Shown here piece by piece: positions 1-37,156 of a stretch of 37,156 nucleotides of DNA. The notes beneath the pieces are model-generated. The model was not told where the DNA came from, did no database searches, and saw nothing but the letters and a program-made list of their open reading frames with translations. This stretch comes from a virus (Duplodnaviria; Caudoviricetes), in IMG/VR virus record IMGVR_UViG_3300047550_001473, positions 1 through 37,156 of that record; one strand, 5' to 3'. Both the position numbers and the translations under genes were made by a program. Position 1 is the first letter of the stretch. The number at the start of each line of letters is the position of its first letter.

Positions 1-92
1 CCTAAAGGGGTATACCCCACCCGACATGTCGTAGTATGTCGTTTCTGGACACGACACGAGGCGACATGTCGGGTGGGGTATACCCCTTTAGG
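1..92. repeat. 31-bp perfect inverted repeat with 30-bp spacer
   Basis: 1-31 (cctaaaggggtataccccacccgacatgtcg) is the exact reverse complement of 62-92. Confidence 0.95.
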
Positions 93-1068: not shown

Positions 1069-1304
1069 GTATGCCCGTAAACGCATTAGGAAGGCCGCAC
1101 AGGGCAATCGGCAGGGTGGGAGCATAAGTACAAGCTAGTGGGGGTGGGAAAGCCGCTGGCGGTGCCTCTAAATCGATTTCGGTTTTTCGGATACCGGGGT
1201 CAGGAATTGCTAAAATAAATCGAAATGGTTTTTCTAAATTTCAAACTGATTCATGAGCGCGAAATTCTATTGGAAAATGGTCGCTCATAAGACGGTGCCG
1301 CGTG

Positions 1305-1368
1305 TGTCAAAATCTTGACGCGTCAAATTTTTGGCACGTCAGCCGTTTGACACGTCAAATCTTTGACG
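1305..1368. repeat. Left array: four head-to-tail 16-bp palindromes YGTCA-N6-TGACR
   Basis: tgtca-aaatct-tgacg, cgtca-aatttt-tggca, cgtca-gccgtt-tgaca, cgtca-aatctt-tgacg. Confidence 0.92.
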
Positions 1369-1395
1369 GTCATGGTGCGTCGCACAAGCGCGCGC

Positions 1396-1430
1396 CGTCG
1401 CGGTCATAGCGTCGCGGTCATAGCGTCGCG
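1396..1430. repeat. 14-bp tandem repeat (cgtcgcggtcatag x2.5)
   Basis: Exact copies at 1396-1409 and 1410-1423, partial copy at 1424-1430. Confidence 0.85.
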
Positions 1431-1605
1431 CAATCAGGCAAGCCGTCGCAAGCGCATGACGCGTGATAGCATTGGAGAGAGTGCGACACAGTGTCGCGTT
1501 ACAGGATTAGGGAGAGTCGCGCGTGCGAGTCATGGCAAGCCTCAAAAAGGAAAAGCGCAACCGTGTCCGGTCGCGCTTAGGGATTAGGGGAATGGCATGG
1601 GGAAA

Positions 1606-1872
1606 TCAGAAGCCGTGCGAGTTTACCCCGTCGCGCTTAAGGCGGAGCGCCTCTTTTCGCGTGACGCGTCGGTGAGAACGCGCACCAAAGCCGGGACCGT
1701 TATCGTATAGCGCGTCGCATATATCGTTCACCGATGAGCGCGCCTTAATCCGAAAGTAACAGTCGGATCGGTCCAGCCATTGCTTAGCCGTGCGAGAAAA
1801 ATCATCGCGCGAATCGTAAGCAAATACATGTCGCGCGCCGCGCCCGTGAATATCGGTTGCAATGTAAATCAT
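1606..1872 (-). CDS. Hypothetical early protein (MIYIATDIHG...)
   Basis: Part of ORF 1606..1992; the ATG at 1872 is preceded by GAAACACGGGAG, like the other cassette genes. Confidence 0.7.
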   Translation of the reverse strand: MIYIATDIHGRGARHVFAYDSRDDFSRTAKQWLDRSDCYFRIKARSSVNDICDALYDNGPGFGARSHRRVTRKEALRLKRDGVNSHGF

Positions 1873-2063
1873 AAGAGTCTCCCGTGTTTCAGTTTCGAAA
1901 GCCGACTGGCATTCGTGAAACGCGCGCCACATGACGCGCGAGACAAGAGTGTCATTCGCCGAAAAGCGCATTTCCGATAAAGAAAAGCGCAAAAGTAAAC
2001 ACGACGGGACCGAAAAGGATTAATCCGTCAAAAGCCGTTAACGTATGCATTGCGTTTCCCCTA

Positions 2064-2741
2064 TCAAGCCGCGATTTGATCGGCGCGTTTTTTCTGTACG
2101 CCATGCGCGGGGAAGCCGACAATTGTCTCCCGTTGCAACGCGCACAAGCCGCATGATTTACAAGTTACGTCGTCGCGATAAGTCGCGGGGCAAACCGTTA
2201 CCTTGCGCCCTTGCGGCGTTGTGATTTTTGCGGGACCGGAAACGCTTGAAGGTAACACGACAACAACGGGACCGGCTTTCGTTTCCGCCAATGCGTCCGC
2301 GTGTTTCAAGTTATTCGCCGATAGGTTTACAGTGAAACCCTTCGCGTTTGCGTTTTTCACATATTGGCGGTTTTTCTCGTTCCGCGTTACGTCATAGTGC
2401 GTATATGTAAAGCCGCGCTTTCCCTCATTAGCAACGACAAGCGCCGCCAAAGCGCCGCCGTCTATGTTAATCCGGTTTCCGGGCAAGTCACCTGCTTGAT
2501 TATGCCGCCAAAGCGTGCCCGGCTTTAGTTTACGGATTTGATCAACAAAATCGGCCCAAAGCGTGCCAGTGTTTCCGTCAGTTACTTTCTGCCAAAACAT
2601 GAAAAGCGGACCGTTGCCAGCATAGCATCCGTTTTCCCGCAACGGGCAAACGTCCGGGCATGTTGCAAAAGTCGTTGTTGAAACGGGAATAGGTCCCGTC
2701 TTTTCGTTGCGCGATTTCATAGTGAGGGCGACTTGATACAT
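2064..2741 (-). CDS. Cys-rich putative Fe-S/radical-SAM-like phage protein (Gp88-like family)
   Basis: CPxxCP...GCYA, WRHNQAGDL, GFTYTH and CPA...CxxCxxC motifs; AAAGGA RBS. Confidence 0.65.
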   Translation of the reverse strand: MYQVALTMKSRNEKTGPIPVSTTTFATCPDVCPLRENGCYAGNGPLFMFWQKVTDGNTGTLWADFVDQIRKLKPGTLWRHNQAGDLPGNRINIDGGALAALVVANEGKRGFTYTHYDVTRNEKNRQYVKNANAKGFTVNLSANNLKHADALAETKAGPVVVVLPSSVSGPAKITTPQGRKVTVCPATYRDDVTCKSCGLCALQRETIVGFPAHGVQKKRADQIAA

Positions 2742-2771
2742 TGCCGTGTTCCTTTTCTGTTTTTCCGTGTT

Positions 2772-3029
2772 TCAGATAATGATGCGGTCATATAAGGCAT
2801 TTTGCATCGCGCCTTGACTTTGCCATGTGAGCTTAGCGCCGTTTTTCAGTGCGCCGTCATAAATAAACGCGAATTGCCGTCCGCGTTCATAATTCCATTG
2901 GTCATTAGTAATGGGGAAAGCCTCATAGTTAAGCGGCTTGCCTGCCCGTGCTTCCTTGAAACCTTTAACGAAAGCCGCGCAACGCATTGCGGCGCTAGCT
3001 TTTCCTAATCGTGTTTTCAATTGCGACAT
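2772..3029 (-). CDS. Hypothetical early protein
   Basis: ATG at 3029 directly after the upstream stop, with a GGGGA RBS. Confidence 0.7.
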   Translation of the reverse strand: MSQLKTRLGKASAAMRCAAFVKGFKEARAGKPLNYEAFPITNDQWNYERGRQFAFIYDGALKNGAKLTWQSQGAMQNALYDRIII

Positions 3030-3030
3030 G

Positions 3031-3267
3031 TCACTTAATCCCCGCAAGTGACTTTAATTCGGCTTTAATTTGTCGCGCTTTTTCGCCGCGCCATGTATTG
3101 GCATTGGCAAGGAAATAAAGGACAAGTCCGCGCGCACTTTCAACGCCATAGGTTTCGTTAATGTCTGAAATTGTATGCATGGCGCTGATATACGGGACCG
3201 CGCCGAAATAGGGCTTTTGCCAGTCCGATTTAATGTCGCGCGCGATAAGGTAAAGAGGGCGTGCCAT
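3031..3267 (-). CDS. Conserved small phage protein (YFGAVPY...YFLANA.TWRGE)
   Basis: 78-aa ORF, AAAGGA RBS, motif typical of phage hypotheticals. Confidence 0.8.
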   Translation of the reverse strand: MARPLYLIARDIKSDWQKPYFGAVPYISAMHTISDINETYGVESARGLVLYFLANANTWRGEKARQIKAELKSLAGIK

Positions 3268-3306
3268 GTGTTATCCTTTCCGTGTTTCCGTGTTTCAATC
3301 AAATGA

Positions 3307-3513
3307 TTATTGAGCATCAATGATTCGTTGCGTCGGAATGTGCATCCGATACCGCTTGCCGTTCTCGCCCGTCCAAATCGGGGAAAATTCCGCATTAGGG
3401 TGATATTGCGCCCAAAGTTTTGCAGTCTTGCGAGTGCTAATGGCGGAATAGATTAAGGCTGCAACGCCGAATGTAAGTGCGATAACATTGGCTGCAATAA
3501 TGAGTGAAAGCAT
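3307..3513 (-). CDS. Small protein with N-terminal transmembrane helix
   Basis: Hydrophobic residues 1-26; first gene after the leftward promoter. Confidence 0.7.
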   Translation of the reverse strand: MLSLIIAANVIALTFGVAALIYSAISTRKTAKLWAQYHPNAEFSPIWTGENGKRYRMHIPTQRIIDAQ

Positions 3514-3563
3514 TTCCGTGTTTCCTTGTTTCCGTGTTTCTGTTTTCCCGTTAGGGTGAGCCT

Positions 3564-3593
3564 ATATAGGAATAATTATATGGAGTCGTCAAG
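3564..3593 (-). promoter_or_regulatory. Leftward sigma70 promoter (CTTGAC-N18-CTATAT) for the minus-strand cassette
   Basis: Reverse complement reads CTTGACgactccatataattattcCTATAT, close to the rhizobial RpoD consensus. Confidence 0.7.
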
Positions 3594-3659
3594 CGGTATT
3601 TTGTCTTTTTAGGATCGGGTGCTATAGATTTTGGGAACGCGTTGAAATTGCGGGGAAAA

Positions 3660-4133
3660 ATGGCGAAGGAAACTAAGAAAAACGGCAGGCCAACGATTTG
3701 GTCAGAAGGAATCGAGGACGAAATCTGCCGAAGGATTGCTGCGGGCCGCTCTGTAAATAGTGTTTCTAAAGATGAAGACATGCCGTCAGACTTCACTATT
3801 TGGAAGTGGTTAGGGGAGAAAGAGAGCTTTTCTAGGAAATACGCCCGCGCGATTGAGGCAAGGGCAATGGCTCACGCTGACGAAATTTCAGACCTGACCA
3901 AGAGAGTTGTATCGGGGGAAGTGCCGCCAGATGTTGCGCGTGTTGCGCTTGATGGGCTGAAGTGGACCGCGTCTCGGTTACTGCCAAAGATTTACGGAGA
4001 CAGGCAAACAGTGGACGTTGCCGTGACTCACACTCACCAACTGCACCTCGATGCGCTTAAACGGTTGAACGATTCAGCAAAGGCATTGCCCGCGAGCGAT
4101 ATCATCGAGGGAGAGATTGTCAGCGTGTCCTAA
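3660..4133 (+). CDS. terS: Terminase small subunit (Sf6 gp1-like)
   Basis: GRPT.W...EIC.RIA.G.S HTH, MPS..TIW.WL, F..KYARA, KW.ASRL.PK.YGDR. Confidence 0.88.
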   Translation: MAKETKKNGRPTIWSEGIEDEICRRIAAGRSVNSVSKDEDMPSDFTIWKWLGEKESFSRKYARAIEARAMAHADEISDLTKRVVSGEVPPDVARVALDGLKWTASRLLPKIYGDRQTVDVAVTHTHQLHLDALKRLNDSAKALPASDIIEGEIVSVS

Positions 4134-4157
4134 TAGACCTTGCCCTTGTTGGAATAG

Positions 4158-4166
4158 TTTTCCACA
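4158..4166 (+). promoter_or_regulatory. DnaA-box match (TTTTCCACA)
   Basis: Fits TTWTNCACA; intergenic. Confidence 0.35.
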
Positions 4167-4285
4167 ATTGAAATGCGTCCCACATAAATCGGTTTGACAT
4201 TATGGGAAATCAGTTTTACAAAGTCTTTAACGCTAATGGGAAAAGGAATCGGTAACATGTAACAGGCGCGACGATATCGGGGAGA

Positions 4286-4384
4286 CGTCAAACTTTTGAC
4301 ATGTCAAATAACTGACACCGTCAAACCATTGACACCGTCAAGAAACCGACACTGTCAAACTTTTGACATGTCAAAAAATTGACA
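4286..4384. repeat. Right array: six 16-bp palindromes YGTCA-N6-YGACA
   Basis: Units start at 4286, 4302, 4319, 4336, 4353 and 4369 with 0-1 bp spacers; followed by C-runs. Confidence 0.93.
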
Positions 4385-4471
4385 CCCCCCCCGTCTCGAC
4401 CCCCCACCGGGGTGCGCCTGCTGCAGCCAACCCGCTCCCAGAAATCAGAAAAACTCACACGGAGATAAGGT

Positions 4472-5023
4472 ATGCTTATAGGTTATGCTCGTACCTCCAC
4501 CAATGACCAGCACGCAGGGCTCGATGCGCAACGGCGTGACTTAGCCGCGTCAGGGTGCGAGCGCATCTTTGACGAGCAGGTGTCATCTGTCGCGCGTCGT
4601 GACAGGCTTGATGAGGCCATCCAGTACTTGCGTGATGGCGATGTGCTTGTCGTGACGAAGTTGGACCGGCTTGCTCGCAGTGTTGCGGATCTAGTGACGA
4701 TTGTCGCTGAGATCGAGAAGCGTGGCGCGAGCCTGCGTATCCTCGCCATGAATCTTGATACCCACACACCGACAGGCAAGCTGATGCTGAATGTGATTGG
4801 CTCTGTGGCGCAGTTTGAGCGTGAGATCATGCTTGAGCGTCAGCGTGAGGGTATCCAGAAGGCGAAGCGAGACGGGAAATACAGGGGCAGGAAGCCTACT
4901 GCGGCTGTGCGGAAAGACGAGATCGTGACGCTATTGGCTGGTGGAGTGAAGCCATTGGAGATCGCGTCGCAGTTGCAGATCTCGAAGAGCAGCGTTTATC
5001 GTTTGATAGGGGAGATGGGGTGA
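4472..5023 (+). CDS. Small serine recombinase (resolvase/invertase family) with C-terminal HTH
   Basis: IGYARTST catalytic Ser, VVTKLDRLARS, AQFERE..ERQREG, YRGRK, HTH; 183 aa with no large-recombinase domain. Confidence 0.95.
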   Translation: MLIGYARTSTNDQHAGLDAQRRDLAASGCERIFDEQVSSVARRDRLDEAIQYLRDGDVLVVTKLDRLARSVADLVTIVAEIEKRGASLRILAMNLDTHTPTGKLMLNVIGSVAQFEREIMLERQREGIQKAKRDGKYRGRKPTAAVRKDEIVTLLAGGVKPLEIASQLQISKSSVYRLIGEMG

Positions 5024-6487: not shown

Positions 6488-6680
6488 AGAACTTTTGGCG
6501 TTGATCGTTCCGTCTTACTTTAACCTGATCGATACGCTGAGACGGCGAGAAGAGAAAGCGACGATGATGGACTCGTCCGGTGAAAGCAATGCGTTTAACA
6601 TGGCTCTGGGATATACTTATGCGGCATTGGATGATCTGATCATGCAGGCTGACGAGATAGTGAATAGGTCTACGAGATGA
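6471..6680 (+). CDS. Hypothetical protein
   Basis: GGGGAG RBS; stop overlaps the terL ATG. Confidence 0.6.
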   Translation: MKSEAEELLALIVPSYFNLIDTLRRREEKATMMDSSGESNAFNMALGYTYAALDDLIMQADEIVNRSTR

Positions 6681-8080
6681 GCAAGGCTTCTGCTGACGCG
6701 AAAGAGTTTGAGGATTTCATTCGGCTGTATCGCAATGATCCGGTCAAATTTGTCCGCGTTGTGCTACGAGAGACACCGTTAAAGTGGCAAGAGGAACTGT
6801 TGCGGAAGATCGCGGCAGGGAAGCGGCGCATCTCTGTGCGCGCGGGTCACGGTGTCGGTAAAAGTACTGTGTGTTCGTGGGCCATTGTCTGGGTCATGTG
6901 CACGCGGTTCCCACAGAAATGCGTAATGACCGCGCCTACAGCGGGGCAGTTGTTCGATGCGTTGTTCTCTGAACTGAAAGCGCAAGTGAACAAGCTGCCT
7001 CCTGTATTGCGCGACTCATTCGATGTGCTGAGTGACAGGATTAGCTTGAAGGCAGCGCCAGAGTCGAGCTTTGCATCAGCGCGTACCTCGTCCTCAGAGC
7101 GACCAGAAGCACTTGCCGGTATTCACTCAGAGAATGTGTTGCTGATTGTGGACGAGGCATCAGCAGTGCCAGAGCCTGTGTTTGAGGCAGCGGCAGGGTC
7201 GATGTCTGGTCACAGCGCGTGTACAATTCTCATTGGTAACCCGACGCGTAATAGCGGCTTGTTTTACCGGACGCACCATGAGTTGTCCTCTGACTGGGAC
7301 ACAATGCACGTCTCGTGTCTCGATATTCCATTGGTGTCGAAGGACTTCGTTGAGCAGATCAAGGCAACCTATGGCGAGGGCAGCAATGCGTATCGTATCC
7401 GCGTACTGGGAGAATTTGCTGTTGCTGATAATGATACTCTTATTGCGGCAGAGCTAGTTGATGCGGCAATGGGGAGAGATGTGCCGGTCGATGTGTCAGA
7501 CGGGATGATCTACGGGTTAGACGTTGCGCGGTTTGGCACCGACAGATCTGCTCTGTGCAAGCGGAAGGGCAATGTCGTGATGGAGGTCAAGTCATGGGGC
7601 GGCCTCGATCTGATGCAGCTCGTCGGGGCTGTTGTGAACGAGGCGCGCACGGATAACCCGGTCGAGATCTGCGTAGACACGATTGGTCTTGGTTCTGGGG
7701 TTGCGGATCGGCTGCGCGAGATGGGGTACAATGTCAGGGATGTGAACGTCGCTGAAGCGTCTGCCATGAACCCGAACGCGAACAAGTTGCGCGATGAGCT
7801 GTGGCTTGCGGTGAAGGATTGGCTTGCGACCCGTACAGTGAAGATCCCCGCTGAGTCGGCGTTACGGCATGAGCTTGTGGCCCCGCGTTATGGTTTTACG
7901 TCTTCTGGCAAGATTGTGGTAGAGTCGAAGGACTCGATGAAGAAACGCGGTATGCGGTCACCGGATTTGGCCGACTCTTTGTGTCTGACCTTTGCCGGCA
8001 ATGCGGCACTGGTTGGCGGAAGAGCGACACCTTGGGTAAAAGGAAGACCTATTAAGCGTGCTATTAAAGGTATTGTGTGA
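6677..8080 (+). CDS. terL: Terminase large subunit
   Basis: Walker A GHGVGKS, Walker B LIVDEA, GNPTR, nuclease GLDVARFG.D and SPDLAD. Confidence 0.97.
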   Translation: MSKASADAKEFEDFIRLYRNDPVKFVRVVLRETPLKWQEELLRKIAAGKRRISVRAGHGVGKSTVCSWAIVWVMCTRFPQKCVMTAPTAGQLFDALFSELKAQVNKLPPVLRDSFDVLSDRISLKAAPESSFASARTSSSERPEALAGIHSENVLLIVDEASAVPEPVFEAAAGSMSGHSACTILIGNPTRNSGLFYRTHHELSSDWDTMHVSCLDIPLVSKDFVEQIKATYGEGSNAYRIRVLGEFAVADNDTLIAAELVDAAMGRDVPVDVSDGMIYGLDVARFGTDRSALCKRKGNVVMEVKSWGGLDLMQLVGAVVNEARTDNPVEICVDTIGLGSGVADRLREMGYNVRDVNVAEASAMNPNANKLRDELWLAVKDWLATRTVKIPAESALRHELVAPRYGFTSSGKIVVESKDSMKKRGMRSPDLADSLCLTFAGNAALVGGRATPWVKGRPIKRAIKGIV

Positions 8081-8823: not shown

Positions 8824-9298
8824 AGCATGTCCGGTCGCCACGCGCGACATCACAGTGAACTTACAGAATCGCGGTAAAGCGATTGATAAGGCGCATTACG
8901 GTCCAATGGACCCCAACCAGCCGAACGACCGCTACTGGGCGCAGAAAGCCAAGATGTGGGACGTATCACCGGATGAGGCGAAGACGCAGCGTTGCGGGAA
9001 CTGCGCGGCATTTGTCCAGACAACCGCGATGATGAAGTGCATCGAGGAAGGGATCGCCGGTAAAGAGGGAAGCCAGCAGGATGCGATGGATACTATTGAT
9101 GCAGGCGATCTTGGGTTTTGCGATTTTTTTGACTTTAAGTGTGCTGCGGCAAGAACTTGCGATGCTTGGGTTGTTGGTGGTCCAATCACTGATGAGTCTG
9201 ACGAGGAAGGTGAAGAGGAAGAGTACGAAGAGAGCGAAGAGGACGAGTACGGTCCTATGGCTGAAGGGGCAGGTTTGCTTGAGGGTACATTGAAATGA
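8816..9298 (+). CDS. Conserved Cys-containing phage protein with acidic tail
   Basis: CP.AT.D...N, CGNCAAF, G.C..FDFKCA..RTCDAW. Confidence 0.8.
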   Translation: MVEACPVATRDITVNLQNRGKAIDKAHYGPMDPNQPNDRYWAQKAKMWDVSPDEAKTQRCGNCAAFVQTTAMMKCIEEGIAGKEGSQQDAMDTIDAGDLGFCDFFDFKCAAARTCDAWVVGGPITDESDEEGEEEEYEESEEDEYGPMAEGAGLLEGTLK

Positions 9299-9837
9299 AT
9301 GTAACCGAAGTTGAGATATGGAGAGACATTCCTAATTTTATTGGTTTATACCAAGCAAGTAATTTAGGAAGAATTAGAGTAAGCCCAGAATCTCCACGAA
9401 TTAAGGGTCCAAGCTACCCAGGAAAGGTTCTAAAGCCAATAGAAAGAAAATATGGTTATCTTTGTATTAGCTTAATTTCTGAAGATGGAAAGCGAACAGG
9501 TCATACGGTAAATCGTCTTGTTGCGCTTGCATTCTTTGGCGAACCACCAAATTGTAAATATCAAGCTGCTCATCTTGATGGATCAAAGAAAAACAACAAT
9601 ATCAAAAACTTAGTGTGGGCGACGAGCAAGGAAAACTGCGCTCATAAAATTATTCATGGAACGGCTGGCATTGGAATAAAAAATGGTCGGTCGAAGGTTA
9701 ATGAAGAAATTGTAAGGGAAATTAGACAAAAAGTGTCGGCAGGTATGTCAAGGTTATCTGTTTCTAAGCAATTTAATATCAGTAATGTGCAAGTAGCAAA
9801 CATTGCAGATAGAATTAGTTGGAAACACGTTGCATGA
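9295..9837 (+). CDS. NUMOD4-HNH homing endonuclease
   Basis: EIWRDIP...YQASNLGR (NUMOD4), RLVA.AF, HLDG.K.NN..NL.W; AT-richer than flanks. Confidence 0.9.
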   Translation: MNVTEVEIWRDIPNFIGLYQASNLGRIRVSPESPRIKGPSYPGKVLKPIERKYGYLCISLISEDGKRTGHTVNRLVALAFFGEPPNCKYQAAHLDGSKKNNNIKNLVWATSKENCAHKIIHGTAGIGIKNGRSKVNEEIVREIRQKVSAGMSRLSVSKQFNISNVQVANIADRISWKHVA

Positions 9838-30861: not shown

Positions 30862-31350
30862 TTGGTAAAGCAGGCATACGATATCCTCGACATCGCTCGG
30901 TTCTACTCGAAGGTTGATGTGGGGAAGAAGCACGAGTGCTGGCTCGTGAACGGTGTGCATGTCGATAGATTTGGGTATGGCTGCTTTACTCTTTCAGGTG
31001 TGAATGTAAGAGCACATCGTTTCTCGTATCAGGTATTCAATGGCGAGATAGGTGACGGGCTAGTCGTGCGGCACAAGTGCGATACTCCGCTGTGCGTAAA
31101 CCCGTATCACCTTGAGACTGGCACTGTCGCTGACAACGTCATGGATCGAGTGGTTCGCGGCCGTTCAGCGGTCGGTGAGCGCAACGGCAAAGCAAAGCTG
31201 ACAGCCGAATTAGCGAAAAAGATTTTCAACGATAAGAGACCATACCCGCTAATCTGTGCTGAGTATGGGTTAAACAAGTCCACCGTATCTCAGTTAAAGG
31301 TCGGTAAGACGTGGTCTCACGTGACCGGTAAGAAGTACATCAAGCGCTGA
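30862..31350 (+). CDS. HNH homing endonuclease
   Basis: RF.SKV...CW, RAHRFSY, VRHKCD.P.CVNP.HL..GT..DN. Confidence 0.9.
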   Translation: MVKQAYDILDIARFYSKVDVGKKHECWLVNGVHVDRFGYGCFTLSGVNVRAHRFSYQVFNGEIGDGLVVRHKCDTPLCVNPYHLETGTVADNVMDRVVRGRSAVGERNGKAKLTAELAKKIFNDKRPYPLICAEYGLNKSTVSQLKVGKTWSHVTGKKYIKR

Positions 31351-34822: not shown

Positions 34823-37045
34823 ATGACACTACAAGAAACAAAAGAGATGAGCAACAGCGCGAGTTATACGATGTCGCTTGCGTTTGCCGGTGGCGGGTTC
34901 AAGGACACAACACTCGTGCCGCGCAGATATACGCTCGCTGCGTTGAGCGACAGATTAAAGCATGTGCGTGTTGGTCCAAAGGACGGGTCATACCTTATCC
35001 GTGGTGGCGATCTCTCAATCTGCAAAAGATCTGACGAGAACCTGCAATCAGCGGAACTGATTATCCTTGATGGCGACTCGTCAATCGATCCAGAGACAGG
35101 TGAGATATTAACCGGCGCACCGTCATTCCATACCGTGCATGAAGCGCTGAAGGAGATGAACGTCGCGCACATCATGCACACGAGCCACAGCAATCGTGGA
35201 TCTGATGGCGTTGTATCGTTCTGGAAATACAGAATCCTCATCCCTTGCAAGATGCAGTCGCAAGAGGAACTGACCGCTGCTGTCGATTACTTTATCGCAG
35301 AACTTCATAAGCGTCAGATTTGGATTAACGGTGTGAACGAGAACTACCGCTGGTCGCAGCCGTGGTTTCTCCCGCGCGTCAGCAAAGAAGAAGAGCGTGA
35401 ACGCTTTGTCCATCGCGATCATCTCGACGGATATATCTTCAACATCGATACCGCCGTCTCTTGGCAGCGCGAGACTGAACAGCAAAACCAAATCATCGAC
35501 CAGATCAAGAATACCGAAGCAGCCGCACCGCCGGTGACGAGCACCACGATCTCGCAATTCAATGAGCAGCACGGTCTCGAATGGATGCGAGCCACTCTTG
35601 CCTCGATGGGTTATCGCTTCAGCCATTACGATAAGCGGAACGACGCATACCGATACCTTGCGCCAACGAGTCAGACCGGCGCGGCAGGAGTGATGCTGTT
35701 TAAGGGAAGCCGCGGCGACTGGGTCACTTACTCGCATCACGGGGCGCATGACATCCTGTCTCAGAAAGTGGTGGACCCGTTCGCTTTATACGCAATAGCA
35801 AATTTTTCTGGGGATAACTCTGCCGCCGTCCGGTCGCTTCAGCCACGAGAAAAGAGCATCACGGAACAGCTATCGGAAATCCGTAGCCACAATGTAGCTA
35901 CAGACACCACCGTTTCCGGTAACAGCGACACCCTGTCTCCTGCCCCCAAGAAGCGTATCGAGATTCTGCGCATGGACGAGCTGAAGGACGAGGCAGTCCA
36001 GTGGCTCATCGAGGATCTCGTGCCAGCCAAAGCGTTCGCGGCGATCTACGGGAAGCCCGGCAGCTTCAAGTCATTCGTTGCCATATACCTATCCCAGATG
36101 ATCGCCGCGGGGCAGCCAGCATTCGGAAAGCCGACCGCGCAAGGGACATGCCTATACATTGCAGGGGAAGGCCAAGCAGGGCTGAAGAAGCGCTCGGACG
36201 CGTCACGCATCACGCATGAGATAGAGCCGTCTGTGCCTCTCTATTTCATCAAGCGAAGTCTGAATCTCAGCTCGACGCTGGAAGACATGCAAGAGCTTAT
36301 CAAAGAGATCCGCGAACTCGGCATCGCGCCATCGCTCATCGTCGTGGATACGCTCGCCCGTAACTTTGTCGGGGACGAGAACAGCTCAAGCGATATGAGC
36401 CAATTCATTGCGGTGATCGGTGAGCTGATCGCGCAGCTCGGATGCACGGTGTTGGTGGTCCACCACGCCGGTAAGGACGAGTCAAAAGGGATGCGTGGCT
36501 CATCAGCGCTCCTCGGTGCTGTGGACGCGGAACTCGAATGCGTGCGCACATCAGACGAGGAAGACCGCGAGCACCTGACCGGAAAGCTGACCACGACAAA
36601 GCAGAAGGAAAGCGAAGACGGGATCGAGTTTCACTTCGAAATGGTCAAGGTTTTAACCGACCCAGTAGACCCGAACATCGTATCACTAGGGCTTAAACCC
36701 AGTGAGAAACAGCTCAGCAAAAAGAGACAGAAAAAGCAGCTCTCAGAGAGCGAAATTTTCACCCTAGAAGCCTTTGACCTAGCGGTCTCAGAAGTCGGGA
36801 AGCGCTATGGAACACCCGGAATACCGCCGGATAAACTGTGTATCAGACGCGCTGACTGGTTAGCGTATTTCCGACATTTGTGTGCTGGAGACGACAAATT
36901 CAGCGAAAGAACGTACCAAAGAGCGGCTGCGTCGCTCAGTATGGCAAAAATCATAGCCGCCAAGGGCGACGTTTTATGGAAAACAGAGCAACATCAACAT
37001 GTTACAGAAAAACCCGACAAGCCGACATTGCCCGACATGTCGTAG
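34823..37045 (+). CDS. Primase-helicase (prim-pol-like N-terminus plus AAA_25/RepA-like helicase)
   Basis: LDGD, HTSHS, YRILIP; Walker A GKPGSFKS, LIVVDT, VHHAGKD...MRGSSAL. Confidence 0.88.
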   Translation: MTLQETKEMSNSASYTMSLAFAGGGFKDTTLVPRRYTLAALSDRLKHVRVGPKDGSYLIRGGDLSICKRSDENLQSAELIILDGDSSIDPETGEILTGAPSFHTVHEALKEMNVAHIMHTSHSNRGSDGVVSFWKYRILIPCKMQSQEELTAAVDYFIAELHKRQIWINGVNENYRWSQPWFLPRVSKEEERERFVHRDHLDGYIFNIDTAVSWQRETEQQNQIIDQIKNTEAAAPPVTSTTISQFNEQHGLEWMRATLASMGYRFSHYDKRNDAYRYLAPTSQTGAAGVMLFKGSRGDWVTYSHHGAHDILSQKVVDPFALYAIANFSGDNSAAVRSLQPREKSITEQLSEIRSHNVATDTTVSGNSDTLSPAPKKRIEILRMDELKDEAVQWLIEDLVPAKAFAAIYGKPGSFKSFVAIYLSQMIAAGQPAFGKPTAQGTCLYIAGEGQAGLKKRSDASRITHEIEPSVPLYFIKRSLNLSSTLEDMQELIKEIRELGIAPSLIVVDTLARNFVGDENSSSDMSQFIAVIGELIAQLGCTVLVVHHAGKDESKGMRGSSALLGAVDAELECVRTSDEEDREHLTGKLTTTKQKESEDGIEFHFEMVKVLTDPVDPNIVSLGLKPSEKQLSKKRQKKQLSESEIFTLEAFDLAVSEVGKRYGTPGIPPDKLCIRRADWLAYFRHLCAGDDKFSERTYQRAAASLSMAKIIAAKGDVLWKTEQHQHVTEKPDKPTLPDMS

Positions 37046-37156
37046 TATGTCGTTTCTGGACACGACACGAGGCGACATGTCGGGTGGGGTATACCCCTTT
37101 AGGGGTATCCCACAATGTCGCTTCGGGTGTCGGCTGGTTCTGTCGGTGTAAGTTTG
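37013..37156. other. Putative replication origin with CGACA/TGTCG iterons and nested palindromes
   Basis: About ten CGACA/TGTCG copies, two CGACATGTCG palindromes, GGGGTATACCCC and a TACCCCT-TT-AGGGGTA hairpin at the end of the primase-helicase gene. Confidence 0.6.

Follow-up and report, generated by a model that had tools for sequence, protein, structure and literature searches.

In this study, we analysed a 37,156-bp stretch of DNA, referred to here as the window, which spans positions 1 to 37,156 of the IMG/VR virus record IMGVR_UViG_3300047550_001473 (Duplodnaviria; Caudoviricetes). We focused on two arrays of a short palindromic unit, YGTCA-N6-TGACR, that flank a group of genes near its beginning. 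The window was assembled as a circle and represents by gene content a short-tailed phage (podophage), encoding SU10-type portal, capsid and adaptor proteins together with ejection proteins and a primase-helicase. No match to an integrase was found among its 53 open reading frames (ORFs). The host is likely a member of the Hyphomicrobiales, since the named homologues of a recombinase encoded next to the arrays come from this order.

The left array (1305..1368) comprises four units starting at 1305, 1321, 1337 and 1353, and the right array (4286..4384) six units starting at 4286, 4302, 4319, 4336, 4353 and 4369. An earlier note on this DNA had reported both arrays at these positions as head-to-tail repeats of 16 bp. 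This description holds for the left array, whose period is strictly 16 bp, and has to be relaxed for the right one, where the spacings are 16, 17, 17, 17 and 16 bp. One unit in each array (1321 and 4336) carries one mismatch, and the eight exact 16-bp matches present in the window all lie inside the two arrays, whereas 200 first-order Markov simulations gave at most two exact units per genome. When two mismatches were allowed, the count across the window equalled chance (58 versus 58.4), and thus only the clusters matter. The unit itself is best described as GTCA-N6-TGAC, because the spacer within it is constant at 6 bp, in contrast to the variable junction between units. Assembled Logan contigs from four sequencing runs (two samples), possibly the origin of this DNA, run unbroken across both arrays. 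The runs that match the window best are metagenomes from freshwater. Motif searches also returned sequences that we presume to be a PhaR-like box beside the left array (1373..1387), with similar boxes beside arrays in relatives (L001-L004 flanks), and a RegA/PrrA-like palindrome at 1482..1497.

Between the arrays lie minus-strand genes, among them a DUF7227/phrog_2554 gene (2064..2741) and a phrog_13953 gene (3031..3267), both assigned by domain or PHROG matches, followed by a divergent intergenic region and the plus-strand gene terS (3660..4133), which encodes a Sf6-type terminase small subunit (PF20901, E 1e-27; phrog_1482). A candidate early sigma70 promoter on the minus strand (3564..3592) was read by eye; it is absent from the output of a consensus scan, which gave no promoter at its threshold. 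Outside this cassette the plus strand is densely filled with annotated genes, and not every minus-strand ORF there is annotated. The earlier note was right that the arrays enclose the minus-strand operon, the divergent region and terS, but overlooked a predicted three-subsite res site at 4126..4248 (plus strand). The right array is followed directly by an element of two C-runs and a G-run (4385..4440, plus strand). A gene for a small serine recombinase, or resolvase, follows (4472..5023, plus strand; PF00239 and PF02796), its ATG lying 87 nt downstream of the array, close to the 90 bp given before. Further downstream, the gene for the terminase large subunit (TerL; 6677..8080, plus strand) encodes a protein with 68% identity to TerL of Sinorhizobium phage phiM5.

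The proximity of this gene had led to the proposal that the arrays could be sites at which the recombinase inverts or excises the 2.9-kb cassette, or circularises or resolves the genome. The enzyme is related to alphaproteobacterial plasmid resolvases as well as to Gin-type invertase and gamma-delta resolvase. We compared the window with the sequences surrounding six plasmid resolvases among the closest relatives of the enzyme. In all six, three subsites immediately precede the ATG and an array is missing, and their upstream regions align to window positions 4126-4248. On this homology rests the prediction of the res site, with subsites I at about 4126-4155, II at about 4177-4210 and III at about 4213-4248. 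A site I matrix trained on the plasmid sequences alone gave its best window match at 4126 (score 15.4; next 7.9). Ten shuffles scored up to 14.3, so that the window taken alone is modestly above chance, and the top match fell at the same place in five of five relatives (17.7-26.3). The matrix found no second copy in the window and scored the arrays at -3.8 or lower. The module closely resembles those of pMRAD03, p3META1 and other alphaproteobacterial plasmids in sequence and layout. However, on the plasmids res abuts the ATG, whereas in the window about 225 bp, holding the array and a predicted genome end, lie between them. The window also differs in a DnaA-box-like 9-mer (4158-4166) in the I-II spacer, present throughout the clade.

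Several further results argue against recombination at the arrays. With one res site per genome, inversion or excision of the cassette is impossible for this recombinase. Crossover sites of such enzymes consist of two arms flanking a 2-bp centre and are about 28 bp long, whereas the array units measure 14-16 bp. Four relatives (L311, L314, L317 and L319) lack the right array and keep a recombinase that is 100% identical over the matched part, and six of 13 clade genomes hold the recombinase without arrays. One array-free contig, G038, lacks part of the early cassette and covers both array positions; it retains all three phage proteins that had been put forward as binders, namely the recombinase (98% identity), the XRE protein (100%) and the DnaA-C protein (94%). 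Conversely, a PF00239 gene occurs in one of 28 array-bearing virus records, a member of the window's own clade, and in none of the seven near-complete ones. Gene order was collinear in all 29 loci holding both terS and the recombinase gene. A search from the recombinase side returned 24 loci, in which 14 of 14 clade members had terS upstream and the ten distant loci had no palindrome unit. No inverted or deleted cassette was seen in contigs of the four runs (both arrays crossed in each), in the 29 loci or in the 14, which excludes common rearrangements; contigs drop rare forms. A joint from 4309 to 1346 in run X1 was considered as a recombination product and rejected, as its loose ends correspond to sequence flanking the L142 array and belong to another phage. 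We conclude that the arrays are almost certainly not recombination sites, and that the neighbouring enzyme acts on them is very improbable. The resolvase likely serves genome-dimer resolution at the single res, or circularisation if res lies inside a terminal repeat. Separately, four unrelated phage loci (L439, L445, L446 and L448) have a small serine recombinase gene near terL and no arrays, and three of them show no obvious res site directly upstream of it.

The arrays are gained and lost within the clade. From IMG/VR and metagenomes we collected 35 clade loci, 29 of them the loci with terS and the recombinase gene mentioned above. Among 13 distinct clade genomes spanning both positions, three have both arrays, one only the right, three only the left and six neither. 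Copy number varies from zero to four units on the left and from zero to six on the right, and alleles with and without arrays mix freely. In locus L012 a single unit aligns to non-palindromic sequence in other alleles. An initial impression of strict pairing (three genomes with both arrays, two with none) was dropped once more loci gave single-array genomes. No gene co-segregated with the arrays when the 56 window ORFs were compared with seven relatives, most of them partial.

Beyond the clade, two-unit arrays of GTCA-N6-TGAC were found in at least 126 IMG/VR stretches (about 160 estimated), and variants with cores one base shorter or longer in 15 and 33 stretches, respectively. Distinct matches amounted to 79 of 125 for the 6-bp core (among the matches listed), 14 of 15 for the shorter core and 24 of 33 for the longer one. 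To examine their context we used 99 loci with long flanks (20 and 79 from two scans), dropping 46 with 300-bp flanks. Among the matches listed, to which all cluster counts here and below refer, these loci formed 43 sequence clusters, including that of the window, with GC contents of 27-71%. A terminase gene was present within about 4 kb in 26 of the 43 clusters, in 23 of them identified by TerL, compared with one of 14 control clusters (Fisher P = 5e-4). Counting the controls as two of 14 gives P = 5e-3; one control cluster has a portal gene beside an unassigned 569-aa ORF. PHROGs annotation of the longer ORFs covered 89 of 203 and 52 of 104, and the local phmmer search was run on the test loci, so that small terminases in controls could be missed. 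An array lies upstream of the terminase gene in 21 of the 26 linked clusters, and a G6 or C6 run is found within 250 bp in 11 of the 26, against 22 of 274 background windows. In two loci (L134 and L217) two arrays flank an opposite-strand cassette next to the terminase, as in the window, and in L201 the array lies within an ORF. At least four PHROG families (1482, 51, 3802 and 309) are represented among the TerS proteins encoded next to the arrays.

The arrays are nevertheless a minority feature, being present in one of 80 DUF7227 loci, itself a clade member. Arrays of other palindromes are rare: a set of 138 phage loci taken without selection (1.3 Mb) contained two distinct ones. A three-unit scan of GTDB gave nine matches, several with CG-centred cores and most with near-identical units. 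In the case of cultured phages, blastn with three array regions gave weak matches or none, five named phage records had no arrays, and Vibrio phage Thalassa had no strict unit. A contig family (L375-L407) carries a related pair with a 7-bp core and a G-rich spacer in between, which may represent replication iterons.

To define the motif independently of the scan patterns, we used extra half-sites in the array flanks, which the scan had not fixed. A GTCAA half-site was followed by its mirror in 98 sites with at least three of five mirror bases, and mismatches to the mirror were distributed unevenly among them (C14, 0; G12, 1; T11, 4; A13, 7; T10, 17). In the flanks, a spacer of 6 bp was counted 73 times and any other length at most twice. 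Unit cores are A/T-rich. Distances between units range from 14 to 30 bp and peak at 16 (53), 21 (20), 17 (19) and 14 (15), a distribution partly shaped by the scan patterns. Single scattered sites also occur, as in G001, where 13 sites are spread across 6 kb of small opposite-strand genes. In agreement with the earlier note, the units look like protein-binding sites, whereas the cooperative lattice proposed there appears doubtful given the variable spacing and the single sites.

The unit equals the published FleQ box as given in the accessible text of the sources, a 14-bp GTCAA..TTGAC inverted repeat with an A/T-rich core. FleQ boxes are quoted in PMC6120874, G-x-C contacts of the Fis-like FleQ helix-turn-helix (HTH) are modelled in PMC10723142, and yGTCA-N6-TGACr is predicted for the Desulfovibrio enhancer-binding protein DVU2894 in PMC4641369, as far as these texts were available. 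The boxes of FleQ/FlrA, NtrC-family proteins with a Fis-like HTH, and the DVU2894 motif thus share repeat, core and G-x-C half-sites with the arrays. They differ in that FleQ/FlrA boxes stand singly or in tandem in host promoters, whereas here up to 15 units occur on phage DNA near a terminase gene, and the window lacks an evident sigma54 promoter. A CooA box (TGTC..GACA 16-mer with a GC-rich core in the text available; PMC545781) was rejected on its core composition. Two other candidates were discarded on the mirror positions, of which T10 is the most variable and C14 is invariant. These were an IHF site and a sigma70 -35 box, in which the two T bases of TTG/TTR are the positions conserved best.

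The units are very probably read by a protein. No small protein was common to 17 array-bearing records in a blastp comparison, from which a remote HTH would escape, and among ORFs near arrays and in 17 longer records blastp found only structural and replication genes shared. PF02954 was detected in two of 28 array-bearing records. The lack of a shared small protein and the scarcity of PF02954 point away from a phage-coded binder. Together with the four families of adjacent TerS, the absence of a shared phage protein makes a host-made reader somewhat the better supposition. In other loci, arrays stand directly before what we take by eye to be sigma70-like promoters in L185 and L227 and adjoin presumed sigma54-like motifs in L192 and L217, and sequences that we take to be IHF-like sites lie near arrays in L134, L147, L184, L186 and L229. 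Tandem repeats that presumably resemble sigma54 promoters adjoin the arrays at about 3765-3895 in L192, with at least five copies, and at about 4060-4260 in L217, both phages with T5-type TerS.

We next consider where the arrays lie relative to the ends of the packaged genome. In 18 aligned loci, conservation climbs sharply just past the right array, at the C-run/C-run/G-run element, which is highly conserved in all 18 and is predicted to hold the terminase recognition site and right genome end; at 4385 the window has one C more than the run contigs. Phage phiM5 (MF074189) carries a GenBank-annotated 357-bp terminal repeat that starts inside a small gene before terL and ends 43 bp past the start of a similar C-run/G-run element, a pattern that occurs once in the window. 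The two phages share the order small gene, C-run/G-run element, terL, but phiM5 lacks both an exact 16-bp unit and an annotated resolvase gene, and its small gene has no detectable similarity to the window terS product. By this analogy, the right array likely lies within the last ~130 bp of virion DNA. In general terms, the suggestion of the earlier note that the arrays mark packaging or injection ends fits the terminase linkage across lineages and the analogy with phiM5. The accessible text of PMC10783043 contains nothing on phiM5 ends. Two further observations were set aside. Three of 30 loci had contig ends 47-71 bp from the C-run, but one of the three continues in L306, and the signal was too weak to be used. 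TGACA repeats at the phiM5 end were uninformative, this pentamer being in excess genome-wide; in phiM5 (L131), TGACA/TGTCA occurs 417 times versus 232 expected (Markov), in even excess and with no preferred spacing.

The left array lies near the edge of a compositionally distinct early segment (1170..3680, not strand-specific), in which CAG/CTG, GAG/CTC and several 4-bp palindromes are depleted. Counts against expectation were 15 versus 53 for CAG, 11 versus 44 for CTG, 1 versus 10 for TCGA and 4 versus 13 for GATC. The signal resumes at about 4100-4400; the composition model was trained on 1600-3500 and is thus informative in its borders alone. The shift starts at the left array in L306, L308 and L317. 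Across the segment and in relatives, words containing AG/CT are depleted and CGCG/GCGC are rich, for which restriction avoidance, another selective pressure or a mutation bias may each be the cause. T5-like phages are described in the accessible text of PMC10644984 as restriction-sensitive only in first-transferred DNA. On this basis, the window signal is most naturally read as a first-injected segment. The end that enters first would then carry the right array, and the left array would mark the far boundary of the early operon. Next to the early genes, TTTCCGTG-type repeats lie just upstream of gene starts (2745-2773, 3268-3296 and 3504-3548), and contigs of relatives show deletions between such repeats, suggesting modular gain and loss of early genes.

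Taken together, we favour, tentatively and with somewhat less than even confidence, the interpretation that the arrays are optional docking sites for a probably host-made HTH dimer of the Fis/FleQ type at the borders of a predicted first-injected segment. By analogy with phiM5, virion DNA would end about 30-45 bp beyond the start of the C-run. The right array would enter within the first ~130 bp; res, terS, the early promoter and the early genes would come next, and the left array would be reached after about 3 kb. Judging from the motif, one dimer would occupy each unit and read G-x-C half-sites ten bases apart. In what is the least certain step, bound protein would coat and bend the borders, shielding or holding the exposed end during early expression. 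Slippage, starting from a single unit, would account for the changes in copy number. What the data show is the unit, whose core is fixed at 6 bp, its presence or absence at two variable spots, its recurrence near terminase genes of unrelated phages and a separate predicted res site. Precedents for docking are indirect. As far as the available texts go, DNA-binding proteins exert a pulling force during ejection (PMC2771126), and DnaA boxes have been proposed in silico as a T5 stop signal (bioRxiv 10.1101/866236).

A number of results weigh against this interpretation. Seventeen of the 43 clusters have no terminase gene and five of the 26 linked ones have an array only downstream, and the six clade genomes with neither array show that the arrays are dispensable. 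Neither blastn nor the named records yielded a cultured phage that combines such an array with mapped ends. The end pattern common to phiM5 and the window was built after seeing both sequences, and local alignment ranks the phiM5 end match second (30, against 32 for a chance match). The composition shift persists without arrays in G037 and L323, and the AG-poor zone around the sites, although clear in G001, G002 and G004, is not so in G017, G018, G019 and G026. Four alphaproteobacterial megaplasmids (6.1 Mb) contain few copies of the 16-bp motif, two sites against 0 and 1 for controls, and we know of no FleQ orthologue in the Hyphomicrobiales. The motif does not fix the protein family, since the MarR-family protein OseR binds a longer palindrome with the same core according to the part of PMC12341727 available. 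Finally, the FleQ consensus poorly predicted ChIP peaks in P. fluorescens in the accessible text of PMC6120874.

Alternatively, the units might act as operators or enhancer sites through which the state of the host adjusts transcription of the early genes, terS or the resolvase gene, without any role at the DNA end. This would be in line with the right array lying between a promoter-like sequence embedded in res and the resolvase ATG, with the promoter-like neighbours that we presume in L185, L227, L192 and L217, and with the sites scattered through the opposite-strand genes of G001. The motif is also a transcription-factor box in the accessible text of four papers (PMC12341727, PMC4641369, PMC6120874, PMC10723142). 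Such a role accounts less well for the left array, which has two convergent gene sets upstream of it and no visible promoter, for the 15 tandem units of L192, more than an operator needs, or for the free mixing of alleles. Moreover, sigma54-like motifs in the window are at chance (3 versus 3.4). Overall, we regard it as unlikely.

A recognition site for TerS that chooses the start or end of packaging, in the manner of lambda cosB R sites or P1 pac hexamers, could explain the linkage of arrays to terminase genes and their contact with G/C-run elements, and spacings of 16, 21 and 26 bp each come close to a whole number of half-turns of the helix. Nevertheless, the motif is shared by neighbours of at least four TerS families, and arrays are lost in relatives with 73-97% identical TerS, as in L303 (97%, no right array). 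In addition, the conserved element is the C-run rather than the array, and the left array lies 2.3 kb from terS. We consider this role quite unlikely. Slightly less probable still is a nearly neutral origin, in which nothing reads the arrays specifically and they represent either expansions by slippage or single-strand hairpins within a variable non-coding zone. The zero to six copies at one spot, the single unit of L012 opposite non-palindromic alleles and other low-complexity repeats near the arrays would suit such an origin. The right array also folds strongly as single-stranded DNA (z -6.3), which is expected of any palindrome array. However, neutral expansion would hardly yield the same sequence and 6-bp spacer around variable cores in 43 clusters of 27-71% GC, nor is it easily reconciled with the rarity of other palindrome arrays in unselected loci.

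At the extremities of the window (1-92 and 37030-37156), bases 1-20 are a hairpin-like assembly artefact, with contigs diverging at position 20, and the last ~125 bp repeat 21-145. A 45-bp inverted repeat follows the primase-helicase gene. Two HNH endonuclease genes are present (9295-9837 and 30862-31350), the first without a match in longer relatives covering that position.

Neither repeat arrays at the ends of phage genomes nor host boxes within first-injected DNA are without precedent. Short repeat arrays lie by the packaging site or terminal repeat in the SRL/SRR repeats of T7, the pac hexamers of P1 and the cosB R sites of lambda. Those are phage-specific direct repeats or terminase sites, whereas here one palindrome accompanies unrelated terminase families and is dispensable. 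A parallel to docking sites at the border of first-injected DNA is the injection stop region of T5, a cluster of repeats, palindrome and DnaA boxes in the first-step-transfer DNA, where host-protein-like boxes and palindromes likewise border the first-injected DNA, as deduced in silico in the accessible text of bioRxiv 10.1101/866236. Two array lineages carry T5-type TerS, but the T5 motif is different and is kept in all relatives described there, whereas the arrays come and go, and the genes for two-step injection were not identified in this podophage. The position of the arrays fits a T5-type stop region by composition, while their conservation does not. In the literature within reach, which left out most subscription papers and all supplements, the motif was found only for bacterial regulators, with no description on phage DNA. 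What is new is one shared, dispensable palindrome across many unrelated phage lineages.

How phage DNA is protected and taken up before phage proteins exist is an open question, and the host boxes of T5 are so far a proposal. As a broader conjecture, which we put forward as doubtful, unrelated tailed phages infecting several host phyla may have converged on arrays of a single host transcription-factor box, often beside other host boxes, that edge the first-injected DNA. Such landing pads would recruit host proteins to shield, hold or pull the genome end, a general, protein-free control of entry of which the T5 stop region would be one case. In the window's clade, a plasmid res site would also lie inside the terminal repeat, and the resolvase, encoded just past the genome end, would circularise the genome, comparable to Cre in P1. 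The motif lends itself directly to testing, being short, present in at least 26 lineages linked to a terminase gene and represented by natural plus and minus alleles within one clade. For the window, the arrays should not be filed as recombination sites, that place belonging to the predicted res at 4126-4248. More widely, the motif may be of use in finding the genome ends and early regions of phage contigs from metagenomes.

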